Positions 10,457 to 19,184 are shown, counted from the first letter of the stretch. The stretch is 64,000 nucleotides of DNA from Lentisphaerales bacterium (GCA_032123355.1 JAQBFM010000215.1:9325-73324); one strand, 5' to 3'. Notes: generated from the sequence alone by a model not told the origin. Translations and numbers: made by a program.

Positions 10457-12169
10457 TTGACTTGGCAACGCGAAGGCTTCATTATTCTCTGCCATGATTG
10501 GCGCGGACCAATGACCACCAATCGCGGGACTCACACAATGCAGCTTAATCTCAAAGACAACAGTACCGAACGACGGAGATTACTTCTCCGGGTGATAGCT
10601 CCCGCCTTTCCAGCATTCAACATCTATTCACGATTCGCACGCAGGATGACCGCACTCGGCCCGATCTGCGTCGCAACCGCCGCCCACGAAGTCGAGGGCT
10701 GGGATGTTGAAGTCATCGACGAGAACAACTACCGGGAATTCGCACCCAGCGATGAACATGGACGCCCCGATCATGAGGCGCTGCAGGATATACGACCTGC
10801 TGATGTTGTCGGTCTGTATGGGGGCCTGACATCTACAATTCCGCGGCTCTACGAAGTTGCCAACCTGTACCGGAATCGAGGAGTGCCGATCCTCGCCGGT
10901 GGTCAGCATTTCTGCGCAGAAAACATCCAGGATGCCCTCGATAACGGAGTCGATGTGATAGCCATCGGCGAAGGCGAACTGACTATACAGGACATACTCC
11001 GCCGCACGCAGGACCAGAAGCCCATTGACGACGTGCCCGGCATCGCCTTCTTACAGGACGGCCGACTCGTCCGAACCCAGGATCGCCCACCCATTGTTGA
11101 CTTCGAATCCATGCCACTCCCCGATTTCTCACTCCTTCGCAACACGCGCGTCAAAGTTTACCCGCTGTCCTGGACGCGGGGTTGCGGAATGAATTGTGAG
11201 TTTTGCACGGTTAAGGGAAAGCCCCGCTCGTCCTCGCCGGAACGCCTCTTCCGTCAGGTAACCTCCCTCGTCGAAAAACACAACGCCAGGTTCTTCTTCA
11301 TCGTTGACGACCTGTTTGGGCAGCATCGCACTGATGCACTCAAGTTTCTTTCACTTGTTACTGCCTATCAGCAGAAGATCAGTACCCGACTGAAGTTCAA
11401 CGTCCAGATACGCCTGGACAAGGCAAGTGATACAGAACTGCTCACCGCGATGAAAGCTGCAGGAGTTCGAACCGTCTGCATCGGCTTCGAATCGCCAATA
11501 GAAGAAGAACTCGTGGCGATGAACAAGAAACTCAAACCCGAAGAAATGATTGCGCTTGCCCGTATCTATCACAAGTTCGGATTCTTCGTTCACGGAATGT
11601 TCATCTTCGGCTACCCGCTTGTCGGCAAAGCCCAGTTTACAATGTCCGAAGGGGAACGCGTGCGACGCTTCAGAAAGTTCATAACAGCTGCCAGGATCGA
11701 TACTGTCCAGGTGCTGCTGCCGGTTCCATTGCCGGGCACCAAAATGACCGATCGAATCGTTAAGGCCGGCCGACTCTACTCCCGGGATCATGTCGGGTGG
11801 GAATACTACGATGGGAACTTCCCATGCTTTGAACCCGACCCGCCACTTTCTCCTGAGGAGTTGCATAGGGCCAGCATGAGGATCATGGGAAGCTTCTACC
11901 GGTTCCGTCATATGTTCACTGTCGCCATGCACGTACTGATGTTCCCAAGCATGGTTTTTTCACTCCATAATCTGCGATCAGCCTGGCACCAGTGGTATCA
12001 TGGTTGGAGAATCAGCCTCATCAGGTTCGGCGGATGGGTGACAATCAGGCGGTGGCTCAAGGAATTCAAGAAGGGCGTGTTTTCCAAAAAGCTTAGCGAC
12101 GCAAAACGTGTGTCAATCCGCCCCGACGAAAAAGGCCAGGAGAACTCCGCTTCTCATCTAGCCAACTAA
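10457..12169 (+). CDS. B12-binding domain radical SAM protein
   Basis: An N-terminal cobalamin-binding Rossmann region is followed by a CxxxCxxC radical SAM motif (GCGMNCEFC). The start is ambiguous (10457, 10511 or 10538). Confidence 0.8.
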   Translation: MTWQREGFIILCHDWRGPMTTNRGTHTMQLNLKDNSTERRRLLLRVIAPAFPAFNIYSRFARRMTALGPICVATAAHEVEGWDVEVIDENNYREFAPSDEHGRPDHEALQDIRPADVVGLYGGLTSTIPRLYEVANLYRNRGVPILAGGQHFCAENIQDALDNGVDVIAIGEGELTIQDILRRTQDQKPIDDVPGIAFLQDGRLVRTQDRPPIVDFESMPLPDFSLLRNTRVKVYPLSWTRGCGMNCEFCTVKGKPRSSSPERLFRQVTSLVEKHNARFFFIVDDLFGQHRTDALKFLSLVTAYQQKISTRLKFNVQIRLDKASDTELLTAMKAAGVRTVCIGFESPIEEELVAMNKKLKPEEMIALARIYHKFGFFVHGMFIFGYPLVGKAQFTMSEGERVRRFRKFITAARIDTVQVLLPVPLPGTKMTDRIVKAGRLYSRDHVGWEYYDGNFPCFEPDPPLSPEELHRASMRIMGSFYRFRHMFTVAMHVLMFPSMVFSLHNLRSAWHQWYHGWRISLIRFGGWVTIRRWLKEFKKGVFSKKLSDAKRVSIRPDEKGQENSASHLAN

Positions 12170-12194: not shown

Positions 12195-12271
12195 AGCGCC
12201 CGTGGCTCAATTGGATAGAGCACCTGACTTCGGATCAGGATGTTGCAGGTTCGAGTCCTGCCGGGCGCGCC
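12195..12271 (+). tRNA. tRNA-Arg (anticodon TCG)
   Basis: Cloverleaf folded by hand. The 7-bp acceptor stem is GCGCCCG/CGGGCGC and the D stem is GCTC/GAGC. The anticodon stem is CCTGA/TCAGG with loop CTTCGGA (U33, TCG at 34-36). The T stem is GCAGG/CCTGC with a TTCGAGT loop, and CCA is encoded. Confidence 0.85.
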
Positions 12272-12577
12272 ATTCGTAACGTAATCCAGGCGAACCTCTT
12301 GCGAACATGATACCTGGACTCTTCGCCATGAAAGTGCCACTCAACGCCGCATGACGGCAGTCCTTTTCTACAGTTTCTTCTACGGCACGTTGTTCAATGT
12401 TGCATCGGGTTGAACTACGTGCAAAGCGCCCCGCAGATGACATCGCCTCGACTGGACTGACAAAGGCAAGTTTTGGCTCGGAAGCGCACGGGGTAACGTT
12501 ATGATGACATCCGTTTCTCGGGGTTTGCCTCATGGCTTCCGCGGGCCATCCGAGCTTCTCTGTCATAAGAACTTGTC

Positions 12578-12604
12578 TTGACATGGCCGGAGTTATATTA
12601 TACT
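12578..12604 (+). promoter_or_regulatory. Candidate sigma70-like promoter for abiEi (TTGACA ... TATACT)
   Basis: TTGACA lies at 12578-12583 and a TA-rich -10-like TATACT at 12599-12604 (15-nt spacer), ~40 bp upstream of the abiEi start. Confidence 0.3.
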
Positions 12605-12643
12605 TTGCTTTAATGGTGTGTACGCCCATTGTCGGGGAATGTA

Positions 12644-13441
12644 ATGAACTCAAAGCAACAGAAGCTGGGGGATCTCGCAACACGCTTCTTCGCTTATGTC
12701 CAGCTCAAGCGGAAGGAAACAGTTGCCACCGGTGAACTGCAGGATCAACTGGCCATTTCGCCCGCCAAAGAGCGGGATCTGCTCCGCCGACTCGCACGTT
12801 CTGGCTGGATTGTCAGGCTTCGGCGGGGCCTCTATCTTGTTCCCTCCCGAATTCCGGCTGGACGATATAGTCCCGGTGTTTATCTGGCTCTTCAGAAACT
12901 TATGGAAGACTGCCGGGGCGCTTACCAGATATGTGGCCCCAGTGCTTTCAGCTATTATGGATTCAGCGAACAGATAACCAACACTACCTACGTCTACAAC
13001 AACCGAATCTCCGGAGAACGTGTTATCGGAAGTCTCCGGTATGTGTTGATCAAAGTTGCCGATACGCGATTGGGAGGAATCGACCTTTTCGCGACTCCAA
13101 ACGGAGCACAGGCTGTCTATTCGTCCGAGGCCAGAACCCTTGTGGATGCTGTATATGACTGGTCCCGATTCAATAGTCTGCCTCGTGGCTATGACTGGAT
13201 TCGAGACTTTGTGTCCGACCGAAAGAAAGTCCAAGGACTCGTTGACACGACGTTGAGCTTCGGCAATCAAGCCACGCTACGTCGCATTGGCTATCTTCTT
13301 CAGTCTTTGGAACTGCCGAGCCGAATAGTCAGGAGACTCAAGCCTGCCTTAAATCCATCCAAGGCACTGATACCCTTGTTCCCCAACAAACCACAACGTG
13401 GACGAGTGAATCGGGAATGGGGGCTGATCATCAATGACTGA
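12644..13441 (+). CDS. abiEi: Type IV TA system AbiEi-family antitoxin (wHTH transcriptional regulator)
   Basis: N-terminal wHTH: GELQDQLAISPAKERDLLRRLARSGWIVRLRRGLYLVP. A COG5340-like C-terminal domain follows. The stop overlaps the downstream toxin start by 8 nt. The alternative TTG start is at 12629. Confidence 0.8.
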   Translation: MNSKQQKLGDLATRFFAYVQLKRKETVATGELQDQLAISPAKERDLLRRLARSGWIVRLRRGLYLVPSRIPAGRYSPGVYLALQKLMEDCRGAYQICGPSAFSYYGFSEQITNTTYVYNNRISGERVIGSLRYVLIKVADTRLGGIDLFATPNGAQAVYSSEARTLVDAVYDWSRFNSLPRGYDWIRDFVSDRKKVQGLVDTTLSFGNQATLRRIGYLLQSLELPSRIVRRLKPALNPSKALIPLFPNKPQRGRVNREWGLIIND

Positions 13442-14321
13442 AAGAGAATTCGATATGAACAGTTTCCACAATGACCCTGATCTTTTCAGTGCCGCCCTGG
13501 CCGATACTGAAGCTGCATCAGGTTTCACCGCTCGTCTCATTGAGAAGGACTACTTCTGCTCACTCGTGCTGGGCCTCCTGTATAACAAGATTGACTTGCC
13601 TTTGGTCTTCAAGGGTGGAACGTGCCTGAGCAAGGTCTACACTGACTTCTATCGGCTCAGCGAGGATCTGGATTTCATCATACCGATGGAAACTGACTCC
13701 AAGCAGACAGCGCGGCATTCAAGAATCAAGCCGGTGAAGCAGCGCCTGCCACAACTGCGAGATGAGATTCCGTCACTGCAATTGGTCTCTCCCTTAAACG
13801 GGCACAATCAGTCCACTCACTACGCGGCACATCTCGCCTATCAATCTGCAGTCACCGGCCGGCAAGAGTCGATCAAGATCAAAATCGGGCTGCGCGAACC
13901 GTTGCTGCGAGCAGTGCAGTCTCGAGCGGCACACACTTTGATAGTCAGTGGACTCACTCGACGACCAGTCATTCCACCATTCGACGTTGTCGTAATGGAT
14001 ATCCAGGAAGCGTACGCTGAAAAATGCCGGGCTGCTCTAACGCGGAAGGAACCGGCAATTCGAGATATATTCGACATTGACCATGGAATGAAACAACTTG
14101 GCATTGACATGTTCAGCCCCGAGTTCATGAGCATGGTGAAAGAAAAACTTGCGATACCGGGCAATGACCAAATCGACACCGCTGCGAACCGAAAAGAAAT
14201 GCTCTTGAGGCAGCTCGACACGGAACTCAGGCCCGTTCTCAGGCGGAGCGATTTTGATCAGTTCGATCTCGAGACTGCATTCGAAGCCGTCTATCGACTC
14301 GCCCAGACAATTAGAAGCTGA
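13434..14321 (+). CDS. abiEii: AbiEii/AbiGii-family nucleotidyltransferase toxin (DUF1814)
   Basis: Hallmark motifs LVFKGGTCLSKVY ... SEDLDF. The gene is the right size (295 aa) and sits immediately downstream of abiEi with an overlap. Confidence 0.85.
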   Translation: MTEREFDMNSFHNDPDLFSAALADTEAASGFTARLIEKDYFCSLVLGLLYNKIDLPLVFKGGTCLSKVYTDFYRLSEDLDFIIPMETDSKQTARHSRIKPVKQRLPQLRDEIPSLQLVSPLNGHNQSTHYAAHLAYQSAVTGRQESIKIKIGLREPLLRAVQSRAAHTLIVSGLTRRPVIPPFDVVVMDIQEAYAEKCRAALTRKEPAIRDIFDIDHGMKQLGIDMFSPEFMSMVKEKLAIPGNDQIDTAANRKEMLLRQLDTELRPVLRRSDFDQFDLETAFEAVYRLAQTIRS

Positions 14322-14490
14322 AGTCATTGTGCTTGCTCACGAGGCAGGCGCGAAACTCCTGCTGATGGACAAAAAGAGCGGACGCAGCATAGCTGCTCAG
14401 GAGGGACTGAACGTGGTCGGGTTGGTGGGCGTTTTGGTCATGGCGAAGGAGAGCCGAACAATTGAATCCAGAGACTGTTTGTCGCTACCA
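14314..14490 (+). pseudogene. Remnant of a DUF3368 (PIN-like, UPF0175-partner) gene; C-terminal fragment only
   Basis: EAEVIVLAHEAGAKLLLMDKKSGRSIAAQEGLNVVGLVGVLVMAKESRTI matches the conserved C-terminal block of DUF3368 proteins. It has no N-terminal half and no start codon, and it overlaps the abiEii end in another frame. Confidence 0.45.
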
Positions 14491-14669
14491 CGCCAACGCC
14501 TTGCCTCAATGCCACTGAAGCCGGCTTTCTTTTCTACGGTTTCTTCTACGGCACGCTGCCCTCGTAGAAGAACGCTTTCTCCCAGGTGTCGGGCTGGGAA
14601 CCTGTGGGGTCAAATGGCTCGACCCAGCTTCCATCGGGGTGTTTCGGAGCAACAGGGCGGCGTCACTCT

Positions 14670-14790
14670 CATTGCTCCTCAAGTGCGTCGCCTTTCTGCG
14701 GTTCCTGAACTCGCTTTGCCTCGCGGGCAAGAAAGAGATGAGCCATGGCAATGCCGCGGTTACCACCGACCAGACACTTGCCGTGCTCGG
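14670..14790 (-). pseudogene. 3'-terminal fragment of a NUDIX hydrolase gene (duplicate of the 18633-19184 gene end)
   Basis: The minus-strand frame reads ...LVGGNRGIAMAHLFLAREAKRVQEPQKGDALEEQ*. The stretch from GGNRG is nucleotide-identical (98/99) to the corresponding segment of the intact NUDIX gene. Upstream similarity stops and an in-frame stop follows. Confidence 0.5.
14673..14771. repeat. Left copy of a ~99-bp direct repeat (DR; 86 bp exact + 12 bp with 1 mismatch)
   Basis: Identical to 18754-18852 apart from G14685 vs T18766. Confidence 0.85.
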
Positions 14791-14929: not shown

Positions 14930-16687
14930 ATGACGGTGCGAACTCAATATTCCGTGCGGATGCTCCTGCCCTATCTCCGCCGCTATCGCCGCGTGCTGCT
15001 CCTGGCCATCATCGGGACGGCAGCCTTTAATGCTTTGTCGCTTACACCACCACTGATCTTTCGACATTTAATCGATAGCGTGGTTGAACCCGGCAAATGG
15101 GATCGACTTGCTCTGGTGATTGCAATCTACCTGGCCGCTCCGCTGCTGGCCCAGGCGGTTCAGTTCGTCGTCGCTCAGGTCATCGTGTCAATTGCTCATC
15201 GGATGGTTGCAGATATTCGGATCGGGCTGTATCGCCTGCTCTTACGATTGAGCATGCGATTCCACGGCGAGACATCCACAGGAAGCCTGGTCACGCGGCT
15301 TATGGGCGATGTCGGCACGCTCCAACAGCTGGTGTCCGGCCAGACCATCCAGCTCGTGGGCGACTTAATGGTTTTTCTCTTTTCGGTATTCATCGCCTTC
15401 TCCATTCATCATGTGCTTGCCGCCATTCTAGTGGTAGTTGCCGTTCTGTACGCAGGAGCTTACCTCGTGTTCTCTCGCCATATTCGGGCGGCAACACATT
15501 CCATGCGGACGGTGAACGATCTGCTGGTGGGCCGGCTTCAGGAAACCTTACACGGCGTGCGCCATGTACGCATATACAGCCGTGAGATCGATGAACGGGA
15601 AACGTTTCTACAGCGGGCAACGCAGGGACTCGATCATGCCCTCTCCAGCGGCATGAGTTCCGTCGGGCTTGGAGCGACATGCACCGTGATTGCCGGGTAT
15701 GGGTCTACGGTCATCTACGCGCTCGCCGGCTACTACGTTCTGTGTGATGAAATGACGCTGGGCGATCTGCTCGCCCTGAATACGTACGTATGGATGGCCC
15801 TCAACCCCGCGCTACGGCTAGCCGCGTTTGCCGGCCAGTTTTCCGAGGTCCGTGTTTCGTTACAGCGCGTCCTTGAGCTTCTGGTTATGGAGCCAGACAT
15901 CAGTTCGAAGCCAGGGGCGCCGGATATGAGGTGTACGGAGGGTCGGGTCGAGTTCCGCGATATCGGGTTCCGCTACAAGGAGGATGAGCCCTTGTTCCAG
16001 GGTCTCACGCTGTCTGTGGAGCCCAATACAACCGTGGCACTGGTAGGGCATACCGGGTGCGGCAAAACGACGCTGACGGCTCTGCTCATGCGGCTATGGG
16101 ACGTGCGGGAGGGCCGGGTCCTTATCGATGGAACAGACGTACGGTCGGTAAGCCTGTCCAGTCTGCGGAACATTTTCGGAGTGGTACTGCAGGACCCGAT
16201 AGTCTTTGAGGGCACAATCGCCGAGAACATCGCCTATGGCAGGCCGGAGGCGTCACGACAAGAGATCGAAGATGCCGCCCGAACGGCCGAGGTAATCCAA
16301 TTCTCGGGACAATTGCCAAACGGACTTGACTCAATGTTGGGGACGTATGGCGTGAAGCTCTCCGTTGGACAGAAGCAGCGAGTCAGTATTGCACGGGCCA
16401 TTCTGCGAAATCCACCCATTCTCGTGATGGATGAAGCCACAAGCGCCCTCGACAGTGAGGCCGAGGCCGCGATTCAACGAGCGGTGGCGCGCGTATTGAA
16501 AGGGCGCACGAGTTTCGTGGTAGCCCACCGGCTCTCAACAATCGTTGGCGCGGATCTCATCGTGGTCATGGACCATGGTAGCATTGTCGAGAAGGGCACG
16601 CATGAGGAACTGATGCAGATCCCCGGAGGCCTGTACCACAGATTGTACAAGGAGTTGCAGCGTGCTGGCAGGGAGGGGGCATCATGA
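14930..16687 (+). CDS. ABC exporter subunit, fused TMD-NBD (MsbA/ABCB-like), half of a heterodimer
   Basis: Six TM helices are followed by Walker A (GHTGCGKTT), the ABC signature (LSVGQKQR) and Walker B (ILVMDEATSALD). AGGAG RBS at 14921-14925. Confidence 0.85.
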   Translation: MTVRTQYSVRMLLPYLRRYRRVLLLAIIGTAAFNALSLTPPLIFRHLIDSVVEPGKWDRLALVIAIYLAAPLLAQAVQFVVAQVIVSIAHRMVADIRIGLYRLLLRLSMRFHGETSTGSLVTRLMGDVGTLQQLVSGQTIQLVGDLMVFLFSVFIAFSIHHVLAAILVVVAVLYAGAYLVFSRHIRAATHSMRTVNDLLVGRLQETLHGVRHVRIYSREIDERETFLQRATQGLDHALSSGMSSVGLGATCTVIAGYGSTVIYALAGYYVLCDEMTLGDLLALNTYVWMALNPALRLAAFAGQFSEVRVSLQRVLELLVMEPDISSKPGAPDMRCTEGRVEFRDIGFRYKEDEPLFQGLTLSVEPNTTVALVGHTGCGKTTLTALLMRLWDVREGRVLIDGTDVRSVSLSSLRNIFGVVLQDPIVFEGTIAENIAYGRPEASRQEIEDAARTAEVIQFSGQLPNGLDSMLGTYGVKLSVGQKQRVSIARAILRNPPILVMDEATSALDSEAEAAIQRAVARVLKGRTSFVVAHRLSTIVGADLIVVMDHGSIVEKGTHEELMQIPGGLYHRLYKELQRAGREGAS

Positions 16688-18549
16688 CGACGTCCTCACA
16701 CCGCCGCCGGCGACTCCATCGTATTATCAAGGAGTCACAATCTGATGCGCAGGAACAGACTGGTGTCCAGGCAGGAGACCTGCAACGCCTCTGGCGTGTA
16801 TACCTGACAACTCACCGATGGGCTGTAGCCGGCATGCTGGCGGCACTCGTGGTCTGGGCATCCGTCCCGTACTTTTTCGCCCTGACCCATCGGTACATGA
16901 TCGATGGAATCCTGGTCCCGGGAGCGGGTGCGATGATCGGTGATCACAGCGCTCTGCTACCAAAGTTCCTCCTTGGGCTCGGGTTGGTGTTCGGCGCGAA
17001 TATGCTGCTGCACACCGTCAACCTCGTCTGTAACTGGACTGTATCATCCTCTACGTTGAAGATTGGCCGGGACGTCGCGCTGCGATTGCGCGATCAGCTT
17101 TATCTGAAGTTGAACACCCTGCACCTGGGCTACTATGACCGTACCCAGTCGGGGCGTGTCGTAGCCCGTGTACAGGCGGATGTCGGCCAGATCCAGAATA
17201 CCGTAACGGGACACCTGGCGTCGCTCCTTATTGAACCAATCAAGCTGACGGTCGGATTTGCTGTCCTTTTCTGGCTCGATTGGCGACTTGCGCGCATCCT
17301 TGCCGTGGCAGCACCGCTGTATGCCGGAATCTTTATTCTGCTGCGTCCCCGAATTCGAGTAAACGGCATGGCACAAAGCCGGCTCAACTCGCGGCTGTAC
17401 GGACTGACAGCTGAGCGACTCGAGGCAATCCAGGTCGTAAAGGCCTTCGGGAAGGAACGGGGGGAGCTTGGAGTATTCAGTCGTGCCGTCCATAACGGGG
17501 TCCGTCTTGCACAACGCCACGCCTTGTACAATCAGGGCCTTTCCTTTGCAGCAAGTGCTCTGAGCGCCGTAGCGGTCACTGGCATTCTGCTACACGGTCT
17601 ACTGTCGGTGCGTGACGGCCTGCACGGCATGACCTTGGGATCTGTTGTTGCCTTTGTCCATCTCGCGCAGCAGGTCTTTCAGCCGATTCAAACGCTCACG
17701 GCTATGGGAGCCGTAGTGCAGACGACCATGGTCTCGCTCCGTCGCATCTTCACGCTTCTGGATGAGCCGTGCCCCACGATGTCCGGTGGGATTACCCTTG
17801 CCGGCATGGCGGGTAAGATCCGGCTCGAACACGTAACATTCAGCTATCCCTCACAAAGCCGGCCAGCGTTGCGTGACTTGTCCTTGGAGGTCCGCGCGGG
17901 TGATCATGTGGCGATCATGGGCCCGTCTGGAAGCGGGAAGAGCACGCTGTTTAACATGCTTCTTCGTTTCTATGAACCCCAGCAAGGGAGGATCTTCGTT
18001 GGCGGAGTTGACATCACGGACGCAGATGTAGCCTCTCTGCGTCGCCATGTGCGCTATGTCCAACAAGAGCCTTTCATCTTCTCGGGCACCATTGCGGATA
18101 GTATCCGTTACGGGTGTCCTGACGCAACGGACTCACAGATTGCTGCAGTCGCGGGACTTGCCGAGATGCAGGAGTTTATCTCCGGTCTGCCCGAACGTTA
18201 TGACACCGTGATCGGCGAGAGCGGCATTGGACTTTCTGGCGGCCAGCGCCAACGGCTTGCTCTGGCAACAGCCCTGTTGACGGACCCGGAAATTCTGCTT
18301 CTCGACGACGCTACAAGCGCGTTGGACGCCGAGACCGAGGCGCGCATCCGGAAAACGCTACGCAGCGTCATGGCCGGACGCACAAGTCTAATCATCACCC
18401 AGCGCATCTCCACAGCAAGGAATTGCGACCATATCATTGTTTTGGAGGAGGGCGGCGTCACTCAGTCGGGCACGCATGATGAGCTGACCTCGGCAGATGG
18501 ATTCTACCGGCGTATCTGCAAACAACAGGATGTCGATAGTCATGCCTGA
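16684..18549 (+). CDS. ABC exporter subunit, fused TMD-NBD, second half of the heterodimer
   Basis: The ATGA overlap with the upstream gene implies coupling. Walker A GPSGSGKST, signature LSGGQRQR, Walker B LLLDDATSALD. Confidence 0.85.
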   Translation: MTTSSHRRRRLHRIIKESQSDAQEQTGVQAGDLQRLWRVYLTTHRWAVAGMLAALVVWASVPYFFALTHRYMIDGILVPGAGAMIGDHSALLPKFLLGLGLVFGANMLLHTVNLVCNWTVSSSTLKIGRDVALRLRDQLYLKLNTLHLGYYDRTQSGRVVARVQADVGQIQNTVTGHLASLLIEPIKLTVGFAVLFWLDWRLARILAVAAPLYAGIFILLRPRIRVNGMAQSRLNSRLYGLTAERLEAIQVVKAFGKERGELGVFSRAVHNGVRLAQRHALYNQGLSFAASALSAVAVTGILLHGLLSVRDGLHGMTLGSVVAFVHLAQQVFQPIQTLTAMGAVVQTTMVSLRRIFTLLDEPCPTMSGGITLAGMAGKIRLEHVTFSYPSQSRPALRDLSLEVRAGDHVAIMGPSGSGKSTLFNMLLRFYEPQQGRIFVGGVDITDADVASLRRHVRYVQQEPFIFSGTIADSIRYGCPDATDSQIAAVAGLAEMQEFISGLPERYDTVIGESGIGLSGGQRQRLALATALLTDPEILLLDDATSALDAETEARIRKTLRSVMAGRTSLIITQRISTARNCDHIIVLEEGGVTQSGTHDELTSADGFYRRICKQQDVDSHA

Positions 18550-18632: not shown

Positions 18633-19184
18633 TCAGGATCCTGGCCGCAGTTGTCTGAGTGCAAGTGACACAAGTGCTGCCCATGCCAGCACCTTGAACT
18701 CACCATTGGTCAGCGCCGTTTCGAGTTCCTGCAGGCTGAGCTGGACCTCTTCCTGCTCCTCAAGTTCGTCGCCTTTCTGCGGTTCCTGAACTCGCTTTGC
18801 CTCGCGGGCAAGAAAGAGATGAGCCATGGCAATGCCGCGGTTACCACCGACCCGGTAGCTGCCAAGCTTGACCCAGTCCGGCGCTTCATATCCCGTTTCT
18901 TCTAGAAGCTCCCGCTTTGCCGTTGCAACCGGCTCCTCGCCCGGTTCCAGGTACCCGCCGACCGGCGCCAGCACAATGCCCTCGACCCCGTACTTAGGCT
19001 GACGAAAGACCAGAGCTGTGCCGTCGGTTGTAATCGGCAGGATATTGACAAAGTCCGGCGTGATAATCCATGGCCAATCGGAAATGACCCGACCGTCCGG
19101 CAGTTGAACTGCGTGTTCCTCGACAGTAAGGAACTTGCTGTGCTCCAGCACGGTCCGGCGCGAAAGTGTCTTCCATATCTGCAT
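18633..19184 (-). CDS. NUDIX hydrolase (ADP-ribose pyrophosphatase-like)
   Basis: Nudix box GGYLEPGEEPVATAKRELLEETG. Confidence 0.8.
   Translation of the reverse strand: MQIWKTLSRRTVLEHSKFLTVEEHAVQLPDGRVISDWPWIITPDFVNILPITTDGTALVFRQPKYGVEGIVLAPVGGYLEPGEEPVATAKRELLEETGYEAPDWVKLGSYRVGGNRGIAMAHLFLAREAKRVQEPQKGDELEEQEEVQLSLQELETALTNGEFKVLAWAALVSLALRQLRPGS
18754..18852. repeat. Right copy of the ~99-bp direct repeat (DR), inside the NUDIX CDS
   Basis: See 14673-14771. Confidence 0.85.

Follow-up and report, generated by a model that had tools for sequence, protein, structure and literature searches.

An AbiE toxin-antitoxin operon in a probably acquired, immobile islet beside a tRNA-Arg integration hotspot of a Lentisphaerales bacterium

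We analysed a 64,000-nucleotide (nt) stretch of DNA from a Lentisphaerales bacterium (GCA_032123355.1, JAQBFM010000215.1:9325-73324), hereafter the window, in which an earlier note, written from the sequence alone, had marked the surroundings of a tRNA-Arg(TCG) gene as a layered integration hotspot. The locus holds an ordinary AbiE module, the gene pair abiEi-abiEii, beside a real tRNA hotspot, and is of a known kind. Our best explanation, to which we assign a probability of about 0.6, is that the module is the sole intact cargo of a horizontally acquired islet of ~2.1 kb that is now immobile, having become fixed in the species and decayed.

An intact abiEi-abiEii operon

The operon and its control region comprise the following features, which lie between two copies of a 30-nt direct repeat.

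12578-12643, plus strand: abiE promoter region, with TTGACA at 12578-12583, an AT-rich -10 region and the inverted repeat TTAATGG...CCATT (promoter scan; conservation with a homologous cassette on contig L187)
12644-13441, plus strand: abiEi, 265 amino acids, predicted winged helix-turn-helix (wHTH) antitoxin and autorepressor (Pfam AbiEi_4, 2.6e-8; PADLOC AbiEi, 7.7e-31)
13434-14321, plus strand: abiEii, 295 amino acids, predicted DUF1814 nucleotidyltransferase toxin (Pfam PF08843, 1.6e-24; PADLOC AbiEii, 2.6e-29)

The earlier note had named this pair, with its 8-nt overlap, as a toxin-antitoxin (TA) or abortive-infection module, and the Pfam and PADLOC matches bear the assignment out. The two reading frames overlap by 8 nt (ATGACTGA), and the PADLOC match to AbiEi covers the protein over its full length (residues 12-264). 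The AlphaFold (AF2) model of AbiEii has a mean confidence (predicted local distance difference test, pLDDT) of 87, and its top Foldseek matches in the PDB are TglT/MenT3 (Rv1045) and JHP933. Both window proteins are identical to entries of a Lentisphaerales bacterium metagenome-assembled genome (MAG), TFH18128 and TFH18129, which NCBI lists as 'hypothetical proteins'. Judged by sequence and profile matches, the pair is a clear and complete AbiE module and the only intact cargo of the putative islet.

The inverted repeat of the promoter region, TTAATGG-N-CCATT, is placed downstream of the -10 region and ahead of the start codon, a position kept in L187, where it forms a perfect 9-bp repeat. By analogy with the autoregulation described for AbiEi (PMC3985639, PMC7319586), it is a candidate AbiEi operator.

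A 30-nt direct repeat brackets the operon

12363-12392, plus strand: left copy of the direct repeat (DR-L), CTTTTCTACAGTTTCTTCTACGGCACGTTG (repeat search, local alignment)
12393-12577, no strand assigned: non-coding DNA inside the islet, left of the promoter (absent from the homologous cassette on contigs L187 and L188)
14529-14558, plus strand: right copy of the direct repeat (DR-R), CTTTTCTACGGTTTCTTCTACGGCACGCTG (repeat search, local alignment)

The two copies follow the consensus CTTTTCTAC(A/G)GTTTCTTCTACGGCACG(T/C)TG, agree at 28 of 30 positions and lie 2166 nt apart; DR-L holds two TTCTACRG sub-repeats. At up to three mismatches they are the only matches in the 64 kb, and 100 shuffles produced none. 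When the two intergenic flanks were aligned formally, the local score was 53, compared with 19.8 +/- 2.3 (maximum 32) for 1000 dinucleotide shuffles. Together, the shuffles and the flank alignment rule out a chance origin, and the direct repeats proposed in the earlier note are real. The looser similarity that had also been reported upstream of each copy is only marginal: the leftward extension reaches p ~0.04 and contains indels. The flank alignment gave no rightward extension, the similarity ending abruptly.

Several identities for the repeat were tried and rejected. A structured RNA or terminator is not supported by folding (z-scores of -1.0 to +0.4) or by any Rfam family; a transposon target duplication would be expected to accompany terminal inverted repeats, and none lie inside or outside the copies; and a search for a phage attachment site (attP) returned 0 exact matches in IMG/VR and none in ~190 fetched loci. 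Between the copies we found only abiEi, abiEii and a remnant of a DUF3368 gene, with no integrase or transposase. The 30-bp repeat is most likely a scar of the recombination that placed the islet, either an attachment-site (att)-like core or a (long) target duplication.

A hydrophobic open reading frame (ORF) of 20 codons spans DR-L on the plus strand (12351-12413, MTAVLFYSFFYGTLFNVASG-stop), and DR-R encodes a matching LFY[G]FFYGTL stretch, but without an ATG.

Atypical composition and scattered homologs

The 2136 nt between the repeats have a G+C content (GC) of 52.2%, compared with a window mean of 57.0% (standard deviation 1.9), which places them in the lowest 0.6% of 2.1-kb windows. At third codon positions (GC3), abiEi and abiEii stand at 0.54 and 0.58, the lowest values among the long ORFs of the window, with neighbouring genes at ~0.60-0.70. 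Searching 5.8 billion proteins, we found the closest non-self AbiEii to be 63% identical; the next named homologs belong to Spirochaetales and Bacteroidetes.

A homologous cassette on contigs L187 and L188 delimits what has moved. Its DNA is 72% identical to that of the window, and the alignment is confined to 12596-14309, that is, to the promoter -10 region and the two genes, with unrelated flanks. This limit indicates that the transferable unit is the bare operon. Going by the same alignment, both repeat copies belong to the local context, as do the DUF3368 remnant and the 185 nt that precede the promoter. Within the shared segment (window 12644-14321 against L187:203-1880), AbiEi is the more similar of the two proteins, at 78% amino acid identity compared with 63% for AbiEii.

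Contigs of the same species were retrieved by exact-protein look-ups; they share >99.5% DNA identity and come from at least 10 samples. All eight that span the locus have an identical arrangement with the islet present. Given this presence in every spanning conspecific contig, and with no integrase, the segment looks like a fixed and decayed acquisition. Three of the ten single-nucleotide differences that separate the window from the conspecific variant L183 (at 12428, 12503 and 12568) fall within the non-coding DNA at 12393-12577.

Fixation can also be read the opposite way: there may be no islet at all, with abiE and its surroundings being old and vertically inherited and the repeat a local duplication unrelated to transfer. 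This would fit an arrangement fixed in every spanning conspecific contig across at least 10 samples, the absence of mobility genes, and a toxin that shows neither general rate acceleration nor decay. It is hard to reconcile with a segment whose GC and GC3 are the lowest in the window, with closest homologs that are at most 63% identical and scattered across phyla, with completely different flanks around the homologous cassette in L187/L188, and with an operon that runs directly, with zero intergenic space, into a truncated toxin gene from a different TA family. We consider vertical inheritance very improbable.

The tRNA-Arg gene is occupied by a phage-like element in conspecific strains

12196-12272, plus strand: tRNA-Arg(TCG) (ARAGORN; Rfam tRNA, 71.6 bits)
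12224-12272, plus strand: attachment site (attB) of a phage-like element found in conspecific strains, formed by the last 47-49 nt of the tRNA gene, which run from the anticodon loop to its 3' terminus; outside the islet
12273-12362, no strand assigned: 90-nt spacer from the tRNA to the left repeat (read from sequence)

The tRNA-Arg(TCG) gene named in the earlier note is confirmed by both ARAGORN and Rfam, and it is the sole tRNA that ARAGORN calls in the window. The left repeat, described there as lying immediately 3' of it, is in fact set off by the 90-nt spacer, for which an Rfam search gave no family above threshold.

Four conspecific MAG contigs (L084, L085, L087 and L093) are identical to the window from 12226, in the anticodon loop, rightwards, and leftward of this position carry DNA unrelated to it, as at attR junctions; the 47-nt tRNA segment is 100% identical in these copies. 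Contig L177, from the same MAG as one of the four, matches the window through the complete tRNA-Arg and then continues into unrelated DNA, as at an attL junction. Together, these junctions show the classical attL/attR pattern, indicating an element integrated in the 3' 47-49 nt of the tRNA. tRNA-Arg(TCG) is thus a genuine integration hotspot, occupied in some conspecific strains. Because the protein at the right end of the element has a 69% homolog on an IMG/VR contig (L182) that encodes a terminase, a portal, a head protease and a major head protein, the element is probably a temperate phage. One ORF in the unrelated DNA of L177, beginning MSLEIRKTSKWWYGRW, has a putatively integrase-like N-terminus.

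The window represents the empty site for this element, and an occupied example is MAG GCA_032123875.1. On L177 the relevant stretch is 11689-12053, the other junctions being at the left ends of L085, L084, L087 and L093. Near both ends of the element occurs a motif, TTTGGTAAAA[AT]GTTTGGCAA, that is possibly an arm-type site for the integrase. In the T-stem of the tRNA (window positions 12245 and 12261), a compensatory G-C to A-T allele is found at attL of the element-carrying strain, on L177, and also on L083, an empty-site contig with the islet directly adjacent; it may be either natural allelic variation or the trace of a past integration and excision. We rejected one further candidate integration event, on L181 (GCA_032126375.1, 3219-3575), which leaves the window inside the tRNA at ~12258 and enters low-GC DNA with a TadA-like deaminase gene (tadA). 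It is most likely an assembly chimera formed at the conserved tRNA sequence.

In the element-carrying strains the AbiE islet is found unaltered, outside attR, and no second copy of the 3' 25 nt of the tRNA was found in the 64-kb window at up to three mismatches. It follows that the tRNA hotspot does not use the 30-nt repeat as its att; the repeat also bears no resemblance to tRNA-Arg, starting 91 nt after it. The hotspot proposed in the earlier note holds in the element junctions within the tRNA of conspecific MAGs and in the atypical, pseudogene-rich character of the segment, and does not extend to the 30-nt repeats.

These observations bear on a second alternative, in which the islet is a decayed classical tRNA-gene island that entered through the 3' half of tRNA-Arg, later lost its integrase and its distal tRNA repeat, and carries the 30-nt repeat only incidentally. 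In its favour, some conspecific strains do carry an integrated element in that half of the tRNA, the islet starts within 91 nt of the tRNA end, and contigs of a relative with 87% identity break at or just after the tRNA, which suggests variability. Yet the window contains no copy of the tRNA 3' end, even a degenerate one (up to three mismatches in 25 nt); the islet stays unchanged, outside attR, where the element is present; and the significance of the 30-nt repeat is far too high for an incidental feature. We regard this history as improbable.

The relative in question was the one closer relative that a protein search turned up. Its radical S-adenosylmethionine (radical-SAM) protein, P0138, is 87% identical in amino acid sequence to the one that flanks the locus in the window, and tRNA-Arg(TCG) comes right after the gene. 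Its three contigs (L184:11633-11820, L185 and L186) end at the tRNA or run on for no more than 45 nt, a sequence that does not resemble the window. Where they end hints at variability of the site in this second species as well. When the radical-SAM protein beside the locus was scanned against GTDB representative genomes and JGI metagenomes, matches reached no more than 62% identity, and synteny with tRNA-Arg was seen in 0 of 60 genome loci scanned; across those scans and the protein search, all other relatives were at most 63% identical.

Gene fragments around the right end of the islet

14314-14439, plus strand: internal remnant of a DUF3368/COG2405 PIN-like toxin gene (27 of 42 residues identical to protein P0121, E 4.8e-6)
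14546-14662 (also placed at 14549-14662), minus strand: ORF remnant of 38 codons, ...WEKAFFYEGSVP-stop (translation; putatively coding)
14673-14771, minus strand: internal fragment of a NUDIX gene, 99 nt (98 of 99 nt identical to 18754-18852)

The 2.66 kb between the tRNA and an ATP-binding cassette (ABC) exporter operon thus hold a single intact operon along with three fragments of unrelated genes, each ~100-125 nt long. The first, of 42 residues (~125 nt), abuts the abiEii stop codon in another frame with no intergenic space. It has no Pfam match even at E<=10, and none in NCBIfam or the PDB; the DUF3368 call comes from one database homolog, P0121, which is 64% identical, carries PF11848 and is encoded downstream of a UPF0175 gene. 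On this thin evidence we accept the segment as a putative internal remnant of a COG2405 PIN-like toxin gene. The earlier note had described the C-terminal third of a DUF3368 gene without its UPF0175 partner. The remnant is provisionally kept, through P0121, and the missing partner is upheld, there being no UPF0175 ORF upstream; the piece itself is internal rather than C-terminal, and the PIN-like N-terminal part is absent as well.

The minus-strand ORF remnant has its last three codons and stop inside DR-R. An exhaustive phmmer search of 1.84 billion proteins returned only delta-60-type and other repeat proteins, each matched in many stretches, which we judged spurious, so that no identity was accepted for it. 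What the earlier note took for a NUDIX 3' fragment is an internal 99-nt piece, and it is this minus-strand ORF remnant instead that overlaps the right repeat. The parent gene, which encodes a NUDIX hydrolase, is intact 4 kb downstream (18633-19184, minus strand); the fragment is sharply bounded and separate from the 30-nt repeat. The two 99-nt direct repeats (14673-14771 and 18754-18852) bracket two ABC-exporter genes (14930-18549). The left copy looks like a piece of filler DNA picked up here or a leftover of a duplication. By homologous recombination, the pair would permit deletion of the two ABC genes. Logan contigs break inside the NUDIX fragment, at 14715.

Such a stretch invites a third alternative, in which the 30-nt repeat is the duplicated 3' end of a gene, shared by two paralogous or partly duplicated genes, with the AbiE cassette inserted between these genes in a separate event. 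Both copies read LFY[S/G]FFYGTL on the plus strand with a stop codon soon after (in DR-L as the mini-ORF above), and the reading of DR-R could represent the C-terminus of the DUF3368 remnant after a frameshift (...LNATEAGFLFYGFFYGTLPS-stop); on the minus strand both copies end in ...VP-stop. Similarity that is weak and indel-laden on the left only, and breaks off abruptly on the right, is the pattern expected of a decaying coding sequence that ends at a stop, and the stretch demonstrably gathers short gene fragments, the 99-nt NUDIX copy included. Neither strand's reading found a homolog, however: phmmer against the 1.84 billion proteins, with the minus-strand ORF, gave only spurious repeat-protein matches, and tblastn of the DUF3368-related pieces against all fetched loci, together with a PDB search, gave nothing. 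P0121, the closest DUF3368 relative, is itself truncated, and its C-terminus offers no comparison; the two differences between the repeat copies carry no synonymous or non-synonymous signal. We hold a duplicated gene end to be possible, if unlikely.

A lysine at an invariant active-site position of AbiEii

13881-13883, plus strand: abiEii codon 150, AAA (Lys), in motif 2a, h[DE]h (Glu in 120 of 120 homologs)

Motifs I (hGG), II (R..[ST].DhD), III (K..A...R) and IV (+DxxD), which are required for toxicity in Streptococcus agalactiae AbiEii (PMC3985639), are all intact in the window protein. G61, G62, R74, S76, D78, D80, K197, R204, R210, D211 and D214 are present, in columns conserved in 119-120 of 120 homologs. 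K150 sits in strand 144-153 of the model (IKI-E-IG), and the motif 2a strand adjoins motif II. From the order of motifs, position 150 would be the equivalent of E146 of TglT, the third carboxylate of the active-site cavity (PMC7205606).

The conspecific variant L183 (protein P0001), whose DNA is 99.6% identical, has GAA (Glu) at 13881 and the consensus Arg at position 95. Three abiEii alleles occur in the species: R95/E150 (L183), R95/K150 (L094 and L095) and H95/K150 (the window and most MAGs). Codon 95 is at 13716-13718 and encodes Arg in 93 of 120 homologs; both changes strike conserved positions.

General decay of the toxin was considered and rejected, its identity to outgroups and its departures from consensus being similar to those of its relatives. 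Across 114 outgroup homologs, identity shows no acceleration specific to the window lineage. Without general decay, E150K stands out as a recent, specific change at an otherwise invariant site. The K150 allele is probably attenuated, and we do not call it dead. The earlier note's description of the cargo as defence and addiction genes fits insofar as the abiE module is genuine; the addiction part of that description is tempered by a Lys at a position where the Glu is invariant in all 120 homologs.

One speculative extension would connect the toxin allele to the hotspot. The 2.17-kb unit would be a minimal defence cassette mobilised in trans, its repeats (two TTCTACRG half-sites each) serving as sites for a recombinase encoded elsewhere, for instance by the phage-like element of tRNA-Arg; E150K, the sole allele seen across the other conspecific contigs sampled, would be the outcome of selection for a disarmed toxin in a population where the adjacent site is repeatedly lysogenised. 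We think this scenario has only a slight chance of being right.

A model for the locus

For a horizontally acquired islet, we propose the following history. The abiE operon would have arrived by horizontal transfer in the 2.66-kb gene-fragment stretch between tRNA-Arg(TCG) and the ABC-exporter operon, leaving the 30-bp repeat as a scar, and mobility genes, if ever there, would since have been lost. The 3' half of the tRNA is a separate att site, used by the phage-like element, with the islet just outside it. The DUF3368, minus-strand ORF and NUDIX fragments may have been left by later illegitimate recombination.

By homology, AbiEi (wHTH plus C-terminal domain) would repress the promoter of its own operon. 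It may neutralise AbiEii by inducing auto-phosphorylation at the Ser/Thr of R-x-S/T-x-D-x-D, here S76, as antitoxin-induced auto-phosphorylation of a toxin Ser/Thr has been described in recent work (including bioRxiv 10.64898/2026.01.19.700257). DUF1814 members bind NTPs, extend tRNA 3' ends and block aminoacylation (PMC3985639, PMC7450476, PMC7205606, PMC11375011). Free AbiEii, with its DUF1814 pol-beta fold, would likewise add nucleotides to tRNA 3' ends and so stop translation, with abortive infection and addiction as the outcome. In this lineage the toxin has gained E150K, at what would be the third active-site carboxylate.

Several points weigh against this account. No islet-free allele or relative occurs among the conspecifics and relatives found, so that insertion is deduced rather than observed. 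The islet has neither terminal inverted repeats nor a recombinase gene, and neither IMG/VR nor the ~190 fetched loci contain an att like the 30-nt repeat; moreover, either strand of the repeat allows it to be taken for a duplicated gene 3' end. The argument from composition loses force because the adjoining radical-SAM gene, at 54% GC, is relatively poor in GC as well. As for function, toxicity, neutralisation and phage defence are expected of the window pair by homology alone, and the E146Q variant of TglT remained toxic to a large extent (PMC7205606), which means that E150K is not necessarily null.

The locus leaves the current understanding of TA systems and genomic islands unchanged, and the practical gain is one of annotation: TFH18128 and TFH18129 can be named as a clear AbiE pair in an order, Lentisphaerales, that has been little studied. 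The locus also shows a defence or TA module parked beside a phage attachment site at which some conspecific strains carry an integrated element, and it offers an allele pair, E150 and K150, that could be used to probe the role of motif 2a in DUF1814 toxins.

Comparison with known systems

AbiE has been classed as a type IV TA system, and as type VII in a 2026 preprint. The window module shares the plan of the AbiE systems of S. agalactiae and of Lactococcus lactis plasmid pNP40: each is bicistronic with the antitoxin gene first and overlapping frames, has an inverted repeat in the promoter region, and encodes an AbiEi with an N-terminal wHTH (AbiEi_4) and a C-terminal domain together with a DUF1814 AbiEii that bears motifs I-IV and the R-x-S/T-x-D-x-D phospho-acceptor loop. 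It differs in being chromosomal in a Lentisphaerales MAG, in the Lys of motif 2a, and in being known here from sequence. The window AbiEii is very distant from that of S. agalactiae, with a profile match of E 0.018 to chain 9HLO_B, which is AbiEii in the AbiEi:AbiEii complex of that species (bioRxiv 10.64898/2026.01.19.700257).

The best structural match is to MenA3-MenT3 of Mycobacterium tuberculosis (TakA-TglT, Rv1044-Rv1045), with a Foldseek probability of 1.0 and TM-scores of 0.55-0.62. The motif order is common to both toxins (G62, R76, S78, D80, D82, E146, K189 and D208 in TglT; G62, R74, S76, D78, D80, K150, K197 and D211 in the window), whereas sequence identity to TglT/MenT3 is only 13-16% and the equivalent of TglT E146 is Lys.

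Among COG2405 (DUF3368) PIN-like toxins, which pair with UPF0175 antitoxins and whose family has been described by Matelska et al. 2017 (PMC5499597), the 42-residue fragment is 64% identical to a PF11848 protein that follows a UPF0175 gene. Unlike those systems, it is an internal remnant only, without the PIN N-terminal part, the UPF0175 partner or a direct Pfam match.

The islet departs from tRNA-gene islands and temperate phages in that its repeats are not derived from the tRNA and lie 91 nt downstream of it, it has no integrase, and it shows no presence/absence polymorphism among the eight conspecific contigs that span the locus. The adjacent tRNA-Arg, by contrast, is used by the phage-like element just as such elements use tRNA genes, with 47-49 nt duplicated from the anticodon loop to the 3' end. 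Here, as there, defence and TA cargo clusters beside the site, and the islet shares with tRNA-gene islands an atypical base composition (GC 52.2%, low GC3).

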